This document shows, one piece after another, positions 7,893-24,939 of a DNA stretch of 33,097 nucleotides. The translations under genes were made by a program, and so were the position numbers. Under the pieces are notes generated by a model. It had not been told where the DNA came from. It saw only the letters and a list, made by a program, of their open reading frames with translations, and searched no databases. The stretch spans positions 1 to 33,097 of the IMG/VR virus record IMGVR_UViG_3300032218_002996. One strand, given 5' to 3'. Within the stretch, counting starts at the first letter, position 1. Each line of letters opens with the position of its first letter. Origin of the DNA: a virus. Its lineage: Duplodnaviria > Caudoviricetes.

Positions 7893-8442
7893 AGCCTATT
7901 CTATTTCCTGTTTGATAATCAATATTAATGTTTTTATATTTTTTACCAACTTGTTTAATTCCTATATGTCTTTTTGAGCGTGTTTTATATGGATCATCAA
8001 AAAAAGTATAAACTATTCCATCAAATGTATAATTTGATCTATATAATTCCCTTGTCATTATAGATAAATAAGCATTTGTTTTACGTTTTACATCAGCTAA
8101 TAATTCACCTTTAGTTTTATCACTAACTTGTTGTGAAGTATCTTCTATATTGTTTCTAATGCCAAATTGAGATACATTATTACCATGCCATAATAAGAAT
8201 TTTTCATAAGCTCCGCAAATTAAATATGGCTTAATATAAGTATCTAAAAATAATTGTAATTCAGGTCTATTTGTTAAATCTCCAGTTACATCAATATAAA
8301 ATGGTTCATCCATTGTTGAACGAAACTCCAATTCTTGCATATCCTGGATAAATGAATCTAATTCTGAATCTTTACCTACATTAGCACCCAATTTGCAAAA
8401 GGTTCTAAATTCAGATTTGATTATTAATGGTCGGTAAGACAT
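7882..8442 (-). CDS. Head-tail adaptor/connector protein
   Basis: Follows the portal; FIQDMQE...YIKPYL...FGI helical pattern of Bacteroidota phage adaptors. Confidence 0.65.
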   Translation of the reverse strand: MSYRPLIIKSEFRTFCKLGANVGKDSELDSFIQDMQELEFRSTMDEPFYIDVTGDLTNRPELQLFLDTYIKPYLICGAYEKFLLWHGNNVSQFGIRNNIEDTSQQVSDKTKGELLADVKRKTNAYLSIMTRELYRSNYTFDGIVYTFFDDPYKTRSKRHIGIKQVGKKYKNINIDYQTGNRIGYDN

Positions 8443-9643
8443 TTGTATTAATATTTAATGGTTTATATCCTGCTAATTCTCTTTTTTCATCTGGTGTTAA
8501 TACTGCTAATATTGAAGGATCTAAATATTTAATTGGAGTTAATTGCGTCATTGTAAAATCCTTACCAGGAAATATCATATTTAACTGAGTACTAACTAAT
8601 TTTTGAATCTTAGTAATTCTATTATTAAATAAAGTAATATTATCTGAAATTATATTAGTAGCAAAACCAACATTTCCACCTAATCCAATAATAAATGGAG
8701 GTACACCAAAAGCTCTTGTAACTTTATTTGCTACTCTAATTGTTGATAAGTCAATCGCAGTTAATATACCTTCATTATTTATTTGTTGATATGTAGGTAT
8801 TTCTTCTTTAGTTTTAGCGTGAAATACTGCTAATTTTTGACGGCCAGTTTCTCCTTTAATATCTTTTTTATTACCTGTAAATGCTTCTAAGGTATCATTA
8901 TAATCATCCCATTCTGTTTTACCATGTTCATCTTTAGATTCATCATCAACTTCACCAACTATTGTAAAAATACCACTAGGTAAAAAAGAATTTGTAACTG
9001 ATTCTAATTCATATTTACTATTTTCAGCATCTGTATCAATATCACTAATTGCTGAATAATATGAGGGTATTGGATAAATATATTGTAAAGGTTTACGTTT
9101 AAAAAAATATAATATTTCACCAACTGGCTCACCTTCTTTATTTTTAAATTGTAAAATTTCAGATAAATCATTTTGATTAATTTTTGCACCTTTAAATGGT
9201 GGATATTTACAATCTTTTGAGCTATCATATCTAGATGATAAAGTATGATTATAAACTAAACATTCACCTTCTAATTTTCGTGTATTTTCAAATGGTATAA
9301 CCTTTACAGATATTGGATTACCTGAAGAATCACGTGAAATATGCAAAGTATCACCTTCAAATATAACTAACTGTTGAATAATATCTTCAATTAAATCATT
9401 AAAAGTTTGTGTTTCATTTACTAAAGTATTACCTAATTCTTTATCAACTAATCCTTCAGCAAATGCATATTGGTTTAATGCTTCAATACAACTTGTAGCT
9501 GTTCCACTTTCTCTAATTTGATTAACTAAATTTTGTGGAAATTTATTATCAGTATCATATTTAATTATTTCACCATAATTAACATCACTTTTAATTGTTA
9601 TAACTCTATTTACAAAAGTATATAATTTAGACTTTAAACTCAT
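8411..9643 (-). CDS. Portal protein
   Basis: 410 aa with DNKFPQ...SGTATSC, YIYPIPSY, NSFLPSGI and AFGVPPFIIG motifs. Confidence 0.85.
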   Translation of the reverse strand: MSLKSKLYTFVNRVITIKSDVNYGEIIKYDTDNKFPQNLVNQIRESGTATSCIEALNQYAFAEGLVDKELGNTLVNETQTFNDLIEDIIQQLVIFEGDTLHISRDSSGNPISVKVIPFENTRKLEGECLVYNHTLSSRYDSSKDCKYPPFKGAKINQNDLSEILQFKNKEGEPVGEILYFFKRKPLQYIYPIPSYYSAISDIDTDAENSKYELESVTNSFLPSGIFTIVGEVDDESKDEHGKTEWDDYNDTLEAFTGNKKDIKGETGRQKLAVFHAKTKEEIPTYQQINNEGILTAIDLSTIRVANKVTRAFGVPPFIIGLGGNVGFATNIISDNITLFNNRITKIQKLVSTQLNMIFPGKDFTMTQLTPIKYLDPSILAVLTPDEKRELAGYKPLNINTNVLPTINNQI

Positions 9644-9686: not shown

Positions 9687-10489
9687 CTATATTTTATTAA
9701 GTTCTTTAATATCTCTAAACTCTTGATTTATGTCTGAATAACCTGCTAAATGATATACTAACATTTCAGTAGTTTTAAACCAGTTCATATCATTCATAAT
9801 CCAAGTATAATGTGTATCAACCTGAGTTTGTTCTTTACTTATTTCTTCAATTAATTTAGGAATAGCATAATGATTAACAATATAAGCATATCCACCCCAA
9901 GTTTTAATACTTCTGTTTAACCTAAAAGAATATGGTTTTAATCCATCTGGTGGACTATAACCAGCTAAATGTAAACAATCCCAATTTGAAGGTAATTCAG
10001 ACATTGCTAAATTTAATTTAGCTTTAAAATTATCACAAAAATCAATATCATCTTCTAAAATAAAAACACGCTCATAATTTGATTTATAAGCGTGTTCTAA
10101 TAGTGTTTTATGGCTACGTAATGCAGCTATTTCAGTTGATCTAAGATTATGTTTAGATATTATTCCTTCACTCGTGATGGCCTCCCACGCTTTGGCTTTG
10201 ATTCCATTTCTTTTACAGTTTGATTCTGTAAGTTCTTTACGATCTCTTCTGGCTTTGAGATTAATGAAATAACATTTTCCGTAATTTGAATGTAACTTTT
10301 TTTTTCTGTATTATTATCATCATTCCATCTAGGATTAATTAATAATAGTGAATGTTGGCCATTTCTAAACATCATTTCCCCAAAATGATCATTAAAAGTA
10401 TGTTTAGTTACTAATACTTCAGTTCCATCAGATGTTTTAGTGATAATATCACAATCTAAGTATTCAGGTTTTAAGATATATTTATCCAT
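9687..10489 (-). CDS. GT25 (Lex2B/LgtB-like) glycosyltransferase made as a -1 frameshift fusion (267 aa)
   Basis: The frame of ORF 9687-10004 stays open up to 10310 and encodes CYFINLKARRDR, AALRSH and VFILEDD. It has no ATG/GTG/TTG upstream of these motifs. It joins ORF 10489 by a -1 shift at A9 (10297-10305). Confidence 0.75.
10160..10489 (-). CDS. Small protein with C-terminal KRGRP motif (zero-frame product)
   Basis: 109 aa ORF ending KPKRGRPSRVKE; contains the A9 slippery run. Confidence 0.75.
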   Translation of the reverse strand: MDKYILKPEYLDCDIITKTSDGTEVLVTKHTFNDHFGEMMFRNGQHSLLLINPRWNDDNNTEKKSYIQITENVISLISKPEEIVKNLQNQTVKEMESKPKRGRPSRVKE

Positions 10490-10491
10490 TT

Positions 10492-11052
10492 CTATTTTCT
10501 TTTTAAAATTGTTAAACCGTTATTATTTGTATATTCTTCTAAAATAAACCATTCTTTATTATCATTTAAAAACTCTATTATAGCAGGTTGTAATCCTTTT
10601 TTTTCTTCAACTATATAATTATTCATTATTTCTGGAGTTTGCCAGGATGTTGGTTCATCTGTAAAACCATAGGTATTAGTATCATGTAATACAATAAATT
10701 TCTTTACATTTTTAGCGTGTAAATTTAACTCTTTTTTTAACTGAGAATAGATATGTAAAGTATCAATAAATAATAAATCAGTTTTTTCTATTTCAATTTT
10801 TGTTGTATCGGCTTGAATAAATTGCCATTTAGGGTATAAATTTAATGCTTGTAATACATTTTCATTTGTATGTAAATCAATCCCAATTAATTTTTTAGGA
10901 TTTCTATACATAAATGCATAGGTACTAACTACATTTCTTACACCCATTTCAGTAATATGATCACATTCTTTAGATAACTTATATAATGTATCTATATGTT
11001 CATTAATATCACTTGGTGTTTGTTTTGCTTCGCTGAATTTTTGGTTTATCAT
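10492..11052 (-). CDS. Class I SAM-dependent methyltransferase (Methyltransf_24-like)
   Basis: ITEMGVRNVVST, IGID, DLLFIDTLH, FIVLHDT and NNGLTIL motifs. Confidence 0.85.
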   Translation of the reverse strand: MINQKFSEAKQTPSDINEHIDTLYKLSKECDHITEMGVRNVVSTYAFMYRNPKKLIGIDLHTNENVLQALNLYPKWQFIQADTTKIEIEKTDLLFIDTLHIYSQLKKELNLHAKNVKKFIVLHDTNTYGFTDEPTSWQTPEIMNNYIVEEKKGLQPAIIEFLNDNKEWFILEEYTNNNGLTILKRK

Positions 11053-11590
11053 ATTGTGTTTTTATTTTTTTTATTTGTATTGGTGTTAAATATTTTTCAA
11101 TAGCATGATACCCTAAAGTTCCTAAATGATACTGAGTTTCACAACTAAATTTATTAGCCTCTTTAATTGGAGCTAATTTTAAACCTAATTCTTTACATCC
11201 TTTAGCAAAATAAATATCTTCATTAGTTATTCCATCATAAGGTATTGAATCTAATATTTTAATCATAGCCGATTTATGCCTAAATGAAAATCCACCATTA
11301 CCGACATAAGGCTCAAAATCCCAAACAGCTCCAATATAATCCCATTTATAAAATTTTTCAATACCAGTTCTTAATAAAGCTGAATCATGTTGAATAATTA
11401 ATATATTTTCTTCTTGTATTGATTCCCAAAATTTACGACTAGTCATTAAAGTATTATAATCTTCTATTGAATGACAATCCCAATTATTATAGAATGTAGA
11501 ACCATTTGGTATAAATGCTAAATGATTATCTAATGCTTTAGATATATTTTCATCTCTATTTTCAACTAATATTACTGCTAATTTTTCCAT
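11009..11590 (-). CDS. DUF5672-like GT-A fold putative glycosyltransferase
   Basis: ILIIQHDS, WDYIGAVW, VGNGGFSFR, NEDIYF and LGYH motifs. Confidence 0.8.
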   Translation of the reverse strand: MEKLAVILVENRDENISKALDNHLAFIPNGSTFYNNWDCHSIEDYNTLMTSRKFWESIQEENILIIQHDSALLRTGIEKFYKWDYIGAVWDFEPYVGNGGFSFRHKSAMIKILDSIPYDGITNEDIYFAKGCKELGLKLAPIKEANKFSCETQYHLGTLGYHAIEKYLTPIQIKKIKTQYDKPKIQRSKTNTK

Positions 11591-12330
11591 TAAATTAATT
11601 CTTTATCAAAGTTAGGGTGTTGTTTTAAAAATTCAGGTAAAGTATTTTTATCAAAAGAAACTGCATTCCATAAGTCAATACTAACAGGATGTAAATCTCC
11701 AAAATTATTTTTAGGATTCCAACCGTAATGTGTTTTATTTAACCAATCAGTTTTAATTTCTGAAGCATGACCAAATATTTTATATTTATATCTCATAACA
11801 GCTTCAGATTGAGCAGTACTAAAATGATATATTGTTAATTGACATTCATGGTTTTGATCTTTATTATTAGCTCCTAAATTCTCTATTCTAATCGGTCTAA
11901 AACCGTCATAACAAGCCCAATTAAAAGATCTCCAAAAATTAACATATCCTTTTATACCGTAATATCTTTGAGGGTGTATATAAGCATAATTTAAAGCATT
12001 AGATAAATCTTTAGGCTCAAATACTTCATCAGCATCAATAGTTAATACTAAGTCGTAACCCATTGAATAATTATGAACTTGCCTTCTATGTTGGTTTTCA
12101 GCATAGTAATTATCATATTTATCCCATATTAATTTATTTCCTAATACTTCATTTGCAATATTAAAAATTTCTTCTTCAGTATCTGGACATTTATCAATAG
12201 TACTATAACCATGTGATGGATTAGATGTATAAGCAATTACTACTTTTTCACAATGATCTTTTATAGATAATAATGATTCTTTTAAATATTCCTTACCATA
12301 ATGAATTGTCATTAATCCTATTACTCTCAT
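11590..12330 (-). CDS. GT2-like (GT-A) glycosyltransferase
   Basis: N-terminal YLKESLLSI and the DxD motif LTIDADE. Confidence 0.75.
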   Translation of the reverse strand: MRVIGLMTIHYGKEYLKESLLSIKDHCEKVVIAYTSNPSHGYSTIDKCPDTEEEIFNIANEVLGNKLIWDKYDNYYAENQHRRQVHNYSMGYDLVLTIDADEVFEPKDLSNALNYAYIHPQRYYGIKGYVNFWRSFNWACYDGFRPIRIENLGANNKDQNHECQLTIYHFSTAQSEAVMRYKYKIFGHASEIKTDWLNKTHYGWNPKNNFGDLHPVSIDLWNAVSFDKNTLPEFLKQHPNFDKELI

Positions 12331-12524
12331 AAAAAACTAATTTTAATTAAATCACTATTATTAGTCTTGGTAAAACTTTTAGCTTTTAATTCGTTAAAAA
12401 TATAATCCTGAATAAAAAAATCAACTACTTCATTAAAATTAAATTCTTTATAATTAGATTTTAATAAAGTATATTTATTAATTACTAAATTATATAAACT
12501 TCTTTTATTATACTCTGTTTTCAT
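12327..12524 (-). CDS. Hypothetical protein inside the glycosylation cassette
   Basis: 65 aa with ATGA overlaps on both sides. Confidence 0.6.
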   Translation of the reverse strand: MKTEYNKRSLYNLVINKYTLLKSNYKEFNFNEVVDFFIQDYIFNELKAKSFTKTNNSDLIKISFL

Positions 12525-13429
12525 ACTGCTAATTTAATTATATTTTTTACTTGATGTTCAAAAGTAAAGGTATTTTTTACAAATGTATTATTTTTTTCAT
12601 TATTATAATTAATTAATATTTTGTCTATTTCATTTCGTAATTCATTAAAATCATTAAAATAAATTACATTATTTCCATAAGTTTCTTTCATTCCTTTATG
12701 ATTATAGCTAATACATTTAACACCAGTTCCTAATATTCTTAATAATCTATCTGAGTTATAATTTAAACTATCAAAATGACTACAATTAATTGCTATTTTA
12801 GCACCTCTATATGCTTTAGCTTCTTCATATTGGCTACTATTAAAGTTACCATAACAATGATTCCAGCCATTTCCATATACTCCAAACATATTACCGTATT
12901 CTTTTTGCAGAAAATCAACCATATTTATACGATATTCACTCATAGGAAAATAGCCAATACCATAATTATTACCCATAAATACTATATTTGGCATATTATA
13001 CGCTTCACCTATTGGATTATATATATTTGGATCATATCCTATTTCTAAATAATCAGATTTAAAACCTAATGAACGCATATAATTAACATCATCCATATTA
13101 CTAAATGAAGTTAATGATACATTAGGAGCTAAATCAATCATCCATTGTGGAACTTCATTCCTTTTATCACCAGTCCAATTAATTACAAAAGAACCTTGTT
13201 CTTTCATATATTGGCAAATTGTACTACTAATAATACCAGGACTTTGAATTTGCATAAATACAATATTTGGCTTAAATAAATCAAATTCAATTTTAGTATT
13301 TACATTTATATATGGATCACTTGTTGAAATTTCCTTATAATTATCTTCACCTATAATATCTATAAATGCTTGTTGAAAACCGTTAAATGGTTTTGGTTGT
13401 ACGCATAATCCTATATGTAATATTTTCAT
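12521..13429 (-). CDS. GT-B glycosyltransferase, CgeB/YkvP-like
   Basis: NWTGD, GYDPNIY, IVFMGN, VYGNGW, AKIAIN and SDRLLRILGTG motifs. Confidence 0.8.
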   Translation of the reverse strand: MKILHIGLCVQPKPFNGFQQAFIDIIGEDNYKEISTSDPYINVNTKIEFDLFKPNIVFMQIQSPGIISSTICQYMKEQGSFVINWTGDKRNEVPQWMIDLAPNVSLTSFSNMDDVNYMRSLGFKSDYLEIGYDPNIYNPIGEAYNMPNIVFMGNNYGIGYFPMSEYRINMVDFLQKEYGNMFGVYGNGWNHCYGNFNSSQYEEAKAYRGAKIAINCSHFDSLNYNSDRLLRILGTGVKCISYNHKGMKETYGNNVIYFNDFNELRNEIDKILINYNNEKNNTFVKNTFTFEHQVKNIIKLAV

Positions 13430-13431
13430 AA

Positions 13432-14205
13432 TTATTGATGTGGAAATATAAAATGATAAGGTTCGGCAATTCTTTCAGTAGTATGATTGTATGTTCTAAA
13501 TTCTGTATTATGTAAATGAATAGCGTGAATTGTTTTTGATGGATTTAATACTGAATAACCATTTGAAATTAATTCAAAAGCTAATTTATTATCACATCCA
13601 GGAACTCCTAAATTATAATCTCCAATATTTAAATTAACTGATCCATTAAAACACCAAACATCCTGGCTATCCTTTCTGTTAAATAAAACAGCTTTACCTT
13701 CATAATAATCCCATCGAGATAAAGCAAAACATTCCTTATTTTTAATCCATCGTGTATGCAAAATAGTTTCATCAAAATAAATATCTGAATTAGCTATTAT
13801 ATTAATATCATTAGGATAATCTTTTGTTAATTGAAACATTTGTTTAAATGTTATACGATCATTTATTTCAATTACATTAAAATAAGGAACTCCATTAATA
13901 TTTAAACTTTTATTTATTTCTAAGCAAGTTTCTAATTCTTTTTGTCTTTCAATATTATTTGATTCATAAACCTGAATAAATAAATTAATTTTTTTTAATT
14001 CAAATTCCCCTCTTAAAGCTCTAGATTTATAATTATTATTAAAACCTTGCTCTTTTAACCAATTTCCCAATAACATAACTGCTTCACTTATACAAGCTCC
14101 ACAATTCATATTCATATTATAATTGCATAATTCAAAGGATAAAGATTTTAAACTTTGTCTATTTTCTATTGGATTTTGTAAAGCTAGATTAACTTTTTCT
14201 ATCAT
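13432..14205 (-). CDS. Putative GT-A glycosyltransferase with N-terminal CxxC domain
   Basis: IIANSDIYFD, ALSRWD, DSQDVW, GVPGCDN and AIHLH motifs; N-terminal NCGAC. Start moved from TTG 14214 to ATG 14205 because the TTG lies within the -7 box. Confidence 0.65.
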   Translation of the reverse strand: MIEKVNLALQNPIENRQSLKSLSFELCNYNMNMNCGACISEAVMLLGNWLKEQGFNNNYKSRALRGEFELKKINLFIQVYESNNIERQKELETCLEINKSLNINGVPYFNVIEINDRITFKQMFQLTKDYPNDINIIANSDIYFDETILHTRWIKNKECFALSRWDYYEGKAVLFNRKDSQDVWCFNGSVNLNIGDYNLGVPGCDNKLAFELISNGYSVLNPSKTIHAIHLHNTEFRTYNHTTERIAEPYHFIFPHQ

Positions 14206-14211
14206 AGGAAA

Positions 14212-14219
14212 CAAATATA
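14212..14219 (-). promoter_or_regulatory. -7 promoter box for the glycosylation cassette
   Basis: TATATTTG, 6 nt before ATG 14205. Confidence 0.65.
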
Positions 14220-24264: not shown

Positions 24265-24939
24265 TTAATATAGTATTTAATTGTTTTTCATATTTACTTT
24301 TTATACAATCATATAACATTAATGTATAAACTACCCTAACTGGCTGTTTTAATACATCATCTATTGTATTTCCGATTGCTCCACCCCTTGCAAGTTCAAC
24401 ATACGTTCCAAAGCTGCCAAGTTCTTTGAATCGCTCAATTCCAGCTTGTTGCTGTTCAGATGTTGTGTTATCTTCGTTAAGTTCGGAGTAACGATCAAAG
24501 AAATTATTAATTTGGATAAAAAAAAATTAACAGTTCCTATTATTTCTAAAAACTTTCTATCTGAAATGTCTATTTGAAACAATATTTTCATAATTGGAAT
24601 AATAGATTCAAAACCTGTTTGTTCTGTTTTCATTACATTTCTGCATGATTCAGCATCACCATAACTAATTGAGCCAAAGTCAAAATCTTTATATTCATCT
24701 AAAACATTATCAGTATCAAATACTTCTAAATTTTCAGTAAATGATATTAATTCAAATAGTAATTGAGCTTGTCTATCTTCTAATTTATTAATTATTTCAA
24801 TAGGTATTCCACTTAAAGCTGTTAATTGTAAACCTTTATCATTTACATTTTTAATTACTCCTATTGATTGTACATAAGTTACTTCATCCCAACTAATTGG
24901 AATATTGTAAGATACTTGGTTAATTATTATTGATTGCAT
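24251..24939 (-). CDS. Tail assembly chaperone, -1 frameshift product (229 aa)
   Basis: The -1 frame after T9 reads IQINNFFDRYSEL...QAGIERFKELGSFGTYVELARGG...DDVLKQPVRVVYTLMLYD...NANR* and fills the gap to the next gene. Confidence 0.75.
24361..24939 (-). CDS. Tail assembly chaperone (zero-frame product)
   Basis: IPISWDEVT N-terminus; T9 slippery run at VNFFL (24518-24526). Confidence 0.7.
   Translation of the reverse strand: MQSIIINQVSYNIPISWDEVTYVQSIGVIKNVNDKGLQLTALSGIPIEIINKLEDRQAQLLFELISFTENLEVFDTDNVLDEYKDFDFGSISYGDAESCRNVMKTEQTGFESIIPIMKILFQIDISDRKFLEIIGTVNFFLSKLIISLIVTPNLTKITQHLNSNKLELSDSKNLAALERMLNLQGVEQSEIQ

Follow-up and report, generated by a model that had tools for sequence, protein, structure and literature searches.

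A conserved nine-adenine run probably recodes a small late gene into a leader-GT25 glycosyltransferase fusion in a tailed-phage family

A late gene of a tailed phage is likely to encode two proteins through a conserved, programmed recoding event at a run of nine adenines (A9), with one stretch of the gene dual-coded and with a GT25 glycosyltransferase frame, which has no start codon of its own, as the recoded extension. The window (the whole stretch of DNA that was analyzed, 33,097 nt) is a 33-kb tailed-phage record whose minus strand encodes the terminase, the portal, and the capsid module. In the proposed mechanism, the unslipped mRNA would be translated into a 109-aa protein with a basic tail, while slippage of the host RNA polymerase on A9 would add one A and give rise to a 267-aa leader-GT25 fusion, the first 64 residues being identical in both products. 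Judged from the conserved features described below, the probability that the fusion is made, by either transcriptional or ribosomal slippage, is roughly 0.9, and the odds that the slippage is that of RNA polymerase are even.

Phage and host

The terminase is closest to those of the Nonlabens phages P12024L/S (57%), followed by those of Riemerella phages (46-47%). Among 30 genes whose start contexts were checked, an SD-like motif was present in 2 and an A at position -3 in 21, a low-SD pattern with A at -3 which we take to be a Bacteroidota trait. Based on the terminase relatives and this start-context pattern, the host is likely a member of the Bacteroidota. In the terminase region, terL (26178-24955, minus strand) overlaps the end of terS and begins at TTG, and its frame stays open for a few codons further upstream.

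Layout of the leader/GT25 locus

The GT25 frame (Table 1) runs for 207 codons with no stop and has its first ATG only at codon 103. A preliminary description of this DNA had proposed that the frame is open with no start codon ahead of its N-terminal motifs, that A9 lies within GAA AAA AAA AGT of the leader ORF, and that a -1 shift there joins a 64-aa leader to GT25; the frame check and the translation agree with all three points, giving a predicted fusion of 64 + 203 = 267 aa. The same protein was computed from one added A and from a -1 ribosomal slip. The 0 frame indeed continues for 45 codons beyond the run, and its KPKRGRP motif, described as the end of the protein, is followed by five more residues. 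The dual-coded length up to the 0-frame stop, put earlier at about 150 nt, measures 139 nt when counted from the run and 151 nt when counted from the opening of the -1 frame. The A9 run pointed out in terS is also present (26416-26408, minus strand; codons 10-13 of the small terminase-like gene), and the -1 frame there closes at once, after a few codons.

Only two minus-strand frames that stay free of stops for at least 60 codons have no ATG, GTG, or TTG in their first 40 codons, namely the GT25 frame and one in a tail-assembly-chaperone-like gene. Because both open at a 9-nt homopolymer, the start-less layout of GT25 is not a chance occurrence. A conserved third product in the +1 frame was considered and rejected, as that frame reaches a stop within 2-13 codons after the run.

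Table 1. Positions of the putatively recoded locus, its neighbors, and the second homopolymer site in the window.
Feature	Position	Strand	Description
Leader gene	10160..10489	-	109 aa, 0 frame: folded domain of about 55 aa (no family recognized), linker, and basic tail
A9 slip site (putative)	10297..10305	-	0-frame reading GAA AAA AAA AGT
Start-less GT25 frame	9687..10310	-	-1 frame; 10298-9687 encodes the C-terminal 203 aa of the predicted 267-aa fusion
Dual-coded stretch	10160..10298	-	0-frame tail overlying the first strand, helix, and second strand of GT25
Basic KPKRGRP motif, AT-hook-like	10178..10198	-	In the short product
EDD metal-binding motif of GT25	10047..10055	-	Invariant in alignments A2 and A3; aligns with EDD of COLGALT1
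Portal gene	8411..9643	-	PF04860, E 2e-9; directly downstream of GT25 here and in mapped relatives
Upstream cassette of transferase-like genes	10492..14214	-	CxxC domain with GT-A-like domain, PF13524, DUF5672, methyltransferase-like
T9 site (putative)	24518..24526	-	Tail-assembly-chaperone-like gene 24939-24251; opens a start-less 91-codon -1 frame

The enzyme and leader domains

By sequence and predicted fold, the start-less frame is a member of the GT25 (PF01755) family, and sugar transfer is its predicted activity. Residues 12-110 match PF01755 with 49.6 bits (cut-off 24; E 5.7e-13), and the N-terminal IN[LT]..R.DR strand-helix, SH, and EDD motifs are present together with a GT-A fold (model mean pLDDT 67), which is most similar in structure to mimivirus R655 and COLGALT1 (E 2e-10 to 2e-9). 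The leader is modeled with a pLDDT of 83-87 over residues 1-50, and searches of Pfam, PHROG, PDB folds, and the Atlas returned no assignment for it. Comparison with lambda gpFI yielded neither a Pfam nor a fold match, with a modest model (pTM 0.43), and a complex prediction of the capsid protein with leader residues 1-80 scored 0.02.

The basic tail of the short product carries a recurrent motif. [KRP]GR is found in 34 of 42 close tails and in none of 91 control segments, and [KR]GR is found in 8 of 13 distant tails, where its distance from the preceding GT25 IN motif is 17, 25, or 53 codons depending on the clade. Since its position relative to GT25 differs among clades and the controls are devoid of it, the enzyme reading frame alone does not give rise to [KR]GR. 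Within the close family, the glycine of the motif does coincide with an invariant tryptophan of the glycosyltransferase. The AT-hook model PF02178 matched the tails weakly (1 of 33 and 3 of 10 members; E 0.04-0.55, best 0.044).

Conservation of the run in the close family

The close set consists of the window and 52 loci obtained from GT25-motif searches of viral and metagenome contigs and from one leader search; the GT25 motifs, not the run, retrieved every locus except the window and L082. Re-fetched contigs (L008-14, L050-56, L077-81, and L083-96) and distant GT25s of <36% identity (L039-49 and L098-100) were left out. The set comprises 43 unique loci with a minimum GT25 identity of 41%; at amino-acid identities of 90% and 70%, they fall into 16 and 8 clusters, respectively.

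The run occurs in the same phase in all 53 loci, as A9 in 52 and as A10 in one (L061), where it is extended upstream and the phase is kept; L097, found later, likewise has A9. On a tree of the 43 unique loci, the nine run positions show 0 parsimony changes, compared to 5-12 changes per position in the upstream flank, and the three synonymous third positions inside the run never change. Among 19 control columns of K, E, or Q, none is all-A and third bases change 3.4 times on average; one control column is invariant, and it is all G. The second lysine codon is never AAG in the close family. The two A's outside the heptamer A_AAA_AAR are fixed as well, as the residue before is always E, Q, or K (NAA) and the residue after is T or S, and a serine after the run is always encoded by AGY (6 loci, 3 changes). 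These two extra A's are non-synonymous and so may be held by protein constraint. Among 82 leader homologues in the protein database, KK[TS] preceded by E, Q, or K is kept in 80, and 74 of those 80 have the 45-residue tail.

There is no ATG, GTG, or TTG ahead of the first GT25 motif in 52 of the 53 loci, the exception being L061 with an in-frame TTG. GT25 homologues in the protein database are mostly N-terminally truncated calls of 114-152 aa. No in-frame leader-GT25 fusion was found among 31 GT25 homologues, among the pattern-scan loci described below, or among longer proteins, the last being weak evidence; P0110 and P0112 were examined as leader fusions and rejected as chimeric-looking glycosyltransferase fragments. 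The leader had no match in 50,697 GenBank phages, in which GT25 matched three jumbo phages (28-32%), and a genome collection yielded distant GT25s only.

Selection on both frames

Among 16 representatives, not one of the 737 overlap codons is a stop in the 0 frame, compared to 226 of the 2469 codons that lie beyond the overlap; the third frame has 49 stops within the overlap. Synonymous recoding of GT25 would leave the 0 frame open with a probability of 0.003 for the window and 0.007-0.28 for the other representatives. In 13 close pairs, pS of the GT frame is 0.17 in the overlap versus 0.36 outside, i.e., synonymous change is halved, and pN/pS of the 0 frame is 0.71 in the overlap versus 1.35 in the same frame outside. 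The overlap holds strand 12-16, helix 22-34, and strand 39-42 of the GT25 model. These comparisons indicate that both frames are under selection over the 45 codons. The preliminary description had noted that both frames look functional, which the stop avoidance and the halved synonymous rate bear out, and the homologues do keep the slippery run together with both open frames; the pattern it had named as contrary evidence, homologues with an independent GT25 start and no conserved overlap, was not what the close family displayed.

Distant relatives and gene neighborhood

A pattern scan for GT25 motifs preceded by an A6R run returned 119 loci from 58 of 64 parts scanned, of which 17 below 12 bits were dropped. 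The pattern fixes a run of six, not its length or phase, and run lengths were visible when the loci were assigned to groups on the basis of leader ORF and start codon. Besides 27 family members, the scan identified 15 loci (13 distinct) in which a GT25 of 24-36% identity lies start-less in the -1 frame behind a leader with a basic tail, one of them (L154) having an in-frame GTG. The run is exactly A9 in 11 of the 13, A8 in L139, and A6 in L146 (CCA AAA AAG), and the short-run loci are confined to one small clade. The distant A9 runs occupy two phases (NAA AAA AAA A and NNA AAA AAA AA). By comparison, of 44 distinct ordinary GT25 genes that the scan returned, 4 contain a run of nine (Fisher p 5e-7) and 38 have an ATG of their own. 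The distant leaders are homologous to the window leader (hhalign 98.4%, E 4e-15; two of ten rows came from the A4 search), and a portal-like gene follows GT25 wherever the flank reaches. By these sequence comparisons, the leader/-1 GT25 layout is old.

A profile search identified longer leader homologues with an N-terminal CxxC domain. P0125, P0128, L139, L146, and L149 combine this domain with the leader, and in L236 and L237 it stands alone. In L146, the order is capsid, a 185-aa gene, CxxC plus leader/-1 GT25, and portal. In the window, the transferase cassette sits between the CxxC domain and the leader, which form one gene in some relatives; its first ORF (14214-13432, minus strand) has a CxxC-like N-terminal domain (hhalign CxxC match 79%, E 1.6e-5) in frame with a domain that is presumably GT-A-like, given its NSDI motif. 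The gene content of the cassette (13429-10492) varies among close relatives, and leader/GT25 remains last before the portal gene. In L118, L121, L147, and L158, ORFs of 280-430 aa that look like other glycosyltransferases terminate in the leader domain, and a shift there would yield multi-enzyme fusions, these family labels being given by resemblance. Phages with about 50% GT25 identity to the window share 68-70% identity with it in the capsid, and one with 74% GT25 identity shares 49% (L001 and L005 capsid genes), a mismatch that suggests module exchange.

A second homopolymer site

The other start-less frame of the window opens at a run of nine T's (T9) in the tail-assembly-chaperone-like gene and includes about 50 dual-coded codons. 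The run is exactly nine in 9 of 9 relatives. In the cultured Nonlabens phage P12024L, a comparable T9 site (L239:24388-24396) lies in another phase in gp40/gp41, which are annotated as two hypothetical genes, and its -1 frame is open. In three distant phages, the chaperone-like parts form one in-frame ORF with no T9.

Proposed mechanism of the shift

Transcriptional slippage would account for a homopolymer of about nine A or T that is conserved in 53 of 53 close and 11 of 13 distant loci and is not tied to codon phase, with two phases for A9 and two for T9. Runs of nine A or T are known to slip efficiently in vivo and are used by Thermus dnaX (PMC5009743), and An with n > 7 is a listed slippage motif (PMC3711429). 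No other run of at least 9 A occurs in 87.7 kb of flanking coding strand. In 16 loci, neither a conserved SD-like 5' stimulator nor a conserved hairpin was found, the mean folding z being -0.2 to -0.7 and the consensus energy -0.9 in non-pseudoknot folding. Because the length of nine is fixed, independent of phase, and accompanied by no stimulatory structure, slippage of RNA polymerase is slightly favored.

The same two products could arise by tandem -1 ribosomal frameshifting on A_AAA_AAA, in which two lysine tRNAs would move back one base and a longer run would only raise efficiency; we consider this the foremost alternative, at somewhat below even odds. The X_XXY_YYZ heptamer A_AAA_AAR in the 0 frame is the sole element common to all 53 close and 13 distant loci, and L146, with only A_AAA_AAG (six A's), and L139, with eight, fit ribosomal shifting better, although these short runs are restricted to a single small clade and orthologues may switch mechanism, as in dnaX (PMC3711429). 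Orthologues shifted in both +1 and -1 directions, given as a sign of slippage in PMC3711429, were absent: every locus is -1, the distant scan having covered the -1 layout only. A -1-only direction is a mark of ribosomal shifting according to Antonov et al. (PMC3711429); in this gene, the direction is constrained to -1 by the overlap. E. coli reporters with A7, A9, and A11 gave 10, 40, and 63% frameshift product with the mechanism not separated (PMC3711429), sites of the lambda G/GT type are ribosomal (PMC5009743), and the three distant phages with an in-frame chaperone-like ORF and no T9 were counted against slippage. On the other hand, no stimulator was found for ribosomal shifting, AAG is absent at the second lysine in the close family, and the heptamer does not require a length of nine in two phases and two bases. 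Both slippage mechanisms may also operate, by analogy with the dnaX orthologues.

Independent expression of GT25 as a separate overlapping gene, through a non-standard start or translational coupling, is very improbable. Of the 43 unique loci, 34 do have ATT, ATA, or ATC among their first 11 codons, and the database proteins P0083 and P0084 are called from a start such as the upstream in-frame TTG of L061. However, ATG, GTG, TTG, ATT, ATA, ATC, CTG, and ACG are all missing there in the window and in 8 further unique loci, the candidate codon has no conserved position, initiation at the first ATG would lose the first strand, the helix, and the EDD motif, and the fixed run would be left unexplained.

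Equally slim is the chance of phase variation at the DNA level, in which replication slippage to A10 would create a permanent fusion in a sub-population of phage genomes. Homopolymers are known phase-variation sites (PMC3711429) and contigs lose rare variants, but the fused allele was found in 0 of 53 close and 0 of 13 distant loci and in none of 8 runs, and the sole A10 (L061) grows upstream with the phase kept.

Homopolymer sequencing errors are common, and the preliminary description had asked for read support of A9 versus A10. This check was run on contigs from 8 runs, including a possible source of the record (X1) and one that does not bridge the site (X14): contigs from 6 runs of 6 studies (X2, X5, X7, X12, X17, and X19) bridge A9 with substitutions and zero indels, and an A10 fusion appeared in no contig and no homologue. 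The A9/-1 layout is not an assembly error, as the run length is identical over independent assemblies and deep divergence, and a decayed gene is practically discounted by the strong purifying selection on GT25 (pN/pS 0.11 outside the overlap). The original observation is confirmed.

Possible function and comparison with known systems

The gene lies in the late module between the capsid and portal genes, together with other transferases. The leader domain would act as an adaptor present in a tail form and a minority enzyme form, which would limit the dose of the enzyme and aim it at the partner of the adaptor. It is a toss-up whether the shared domain brings both forms to one late-made target, which would most probably be a virion protein glycosylated with the help of the neighboring transferases. 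Virion glycosylation is known in mycobacteriophages (PMC12582341, citing Freeman 2023). Alternatively, the target may be the host surface; a glycosyltransferase that Gratiaviridae encode in their portal-capsid region has been suggested to modify that surface (PMC8008677). The most complete reading is a widespread family of dsDNA phages, likely of Bacteroidota, that uses slippage of the host RNA polymerase on exact 9-nt runs, not ribosomal shifting, at two late genes, doses a glycosyltransferase onto a virion-targeting adaptor, and makes another isoform with a DNA-binding basic tail overprinted on the first strand and helix of the enzyme; it is unlikely to hold in every part.

The predicted fusion would explain the prevalence of N-terminally truncated fragments among the database entries of this GT25, and the short leader offers a way to study how glycosyltransferases of phages reach their target. 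It would also mean that the products of phage recoding can gain an enzyme rather than a structural extension. In the main texts of open-access papers (among them PMC10885494), neither a frameshifted phage glycosyltransferase nor a case of transcriptional slippage in a dsDNA phage was found. If transcriptional, the shift would be an instance of a dsDNA phage exploiting slippage of the host polymerase, for which the cultured P12024L provides a comparable site.

As an enzyme, the phage GT25 resembles COLGALT1, mimivirus R655, and bacterial beta-1,4-galactosyltransferases in sequence motifs and predicted GT-A fold, and differs in having no start codon of its own. Thermus thermophilus dnaX, Shigella spa13/mxiE, and IS elements likewise use a 9-nt A/T run to make alternative C-termini, which is a minority C-terminal extension in spa13 (PMC5009743, PMC3711429), whereas these are cellular or IS genes with demonstrated slippage and the phage slippage is inferred from sequence. 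The extended capsid and tail proteins of T7, T3, Lactobacillus A2, and Listeria A118/A500/PSA are also minority isoforms encoded in the structural region (PMC5009743), although theirs add Ig-like or other structural domains near the end of genes for major virion proteins, and the passages of that source on these cases name no enzyme extension. A further parallel is lambda-type gpG/gpGT (PMC5009743), in which one late gene similarly gives a short and a -1-extended product with a shared N-terminus and is kept across divergent phages. The leader gene is not itself a tail assembly chaperone gene of the G/GT type, as its extension is GT25 and it adjoins the portal gene, which it precedes in place of the tape measure gene. 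In contrast to gpG/gpGT, the shift would take place in mid-gene, with 45 dual-coded codons and a fixed 9-nt run, and the window has a G/GT-like site of its own at T9.
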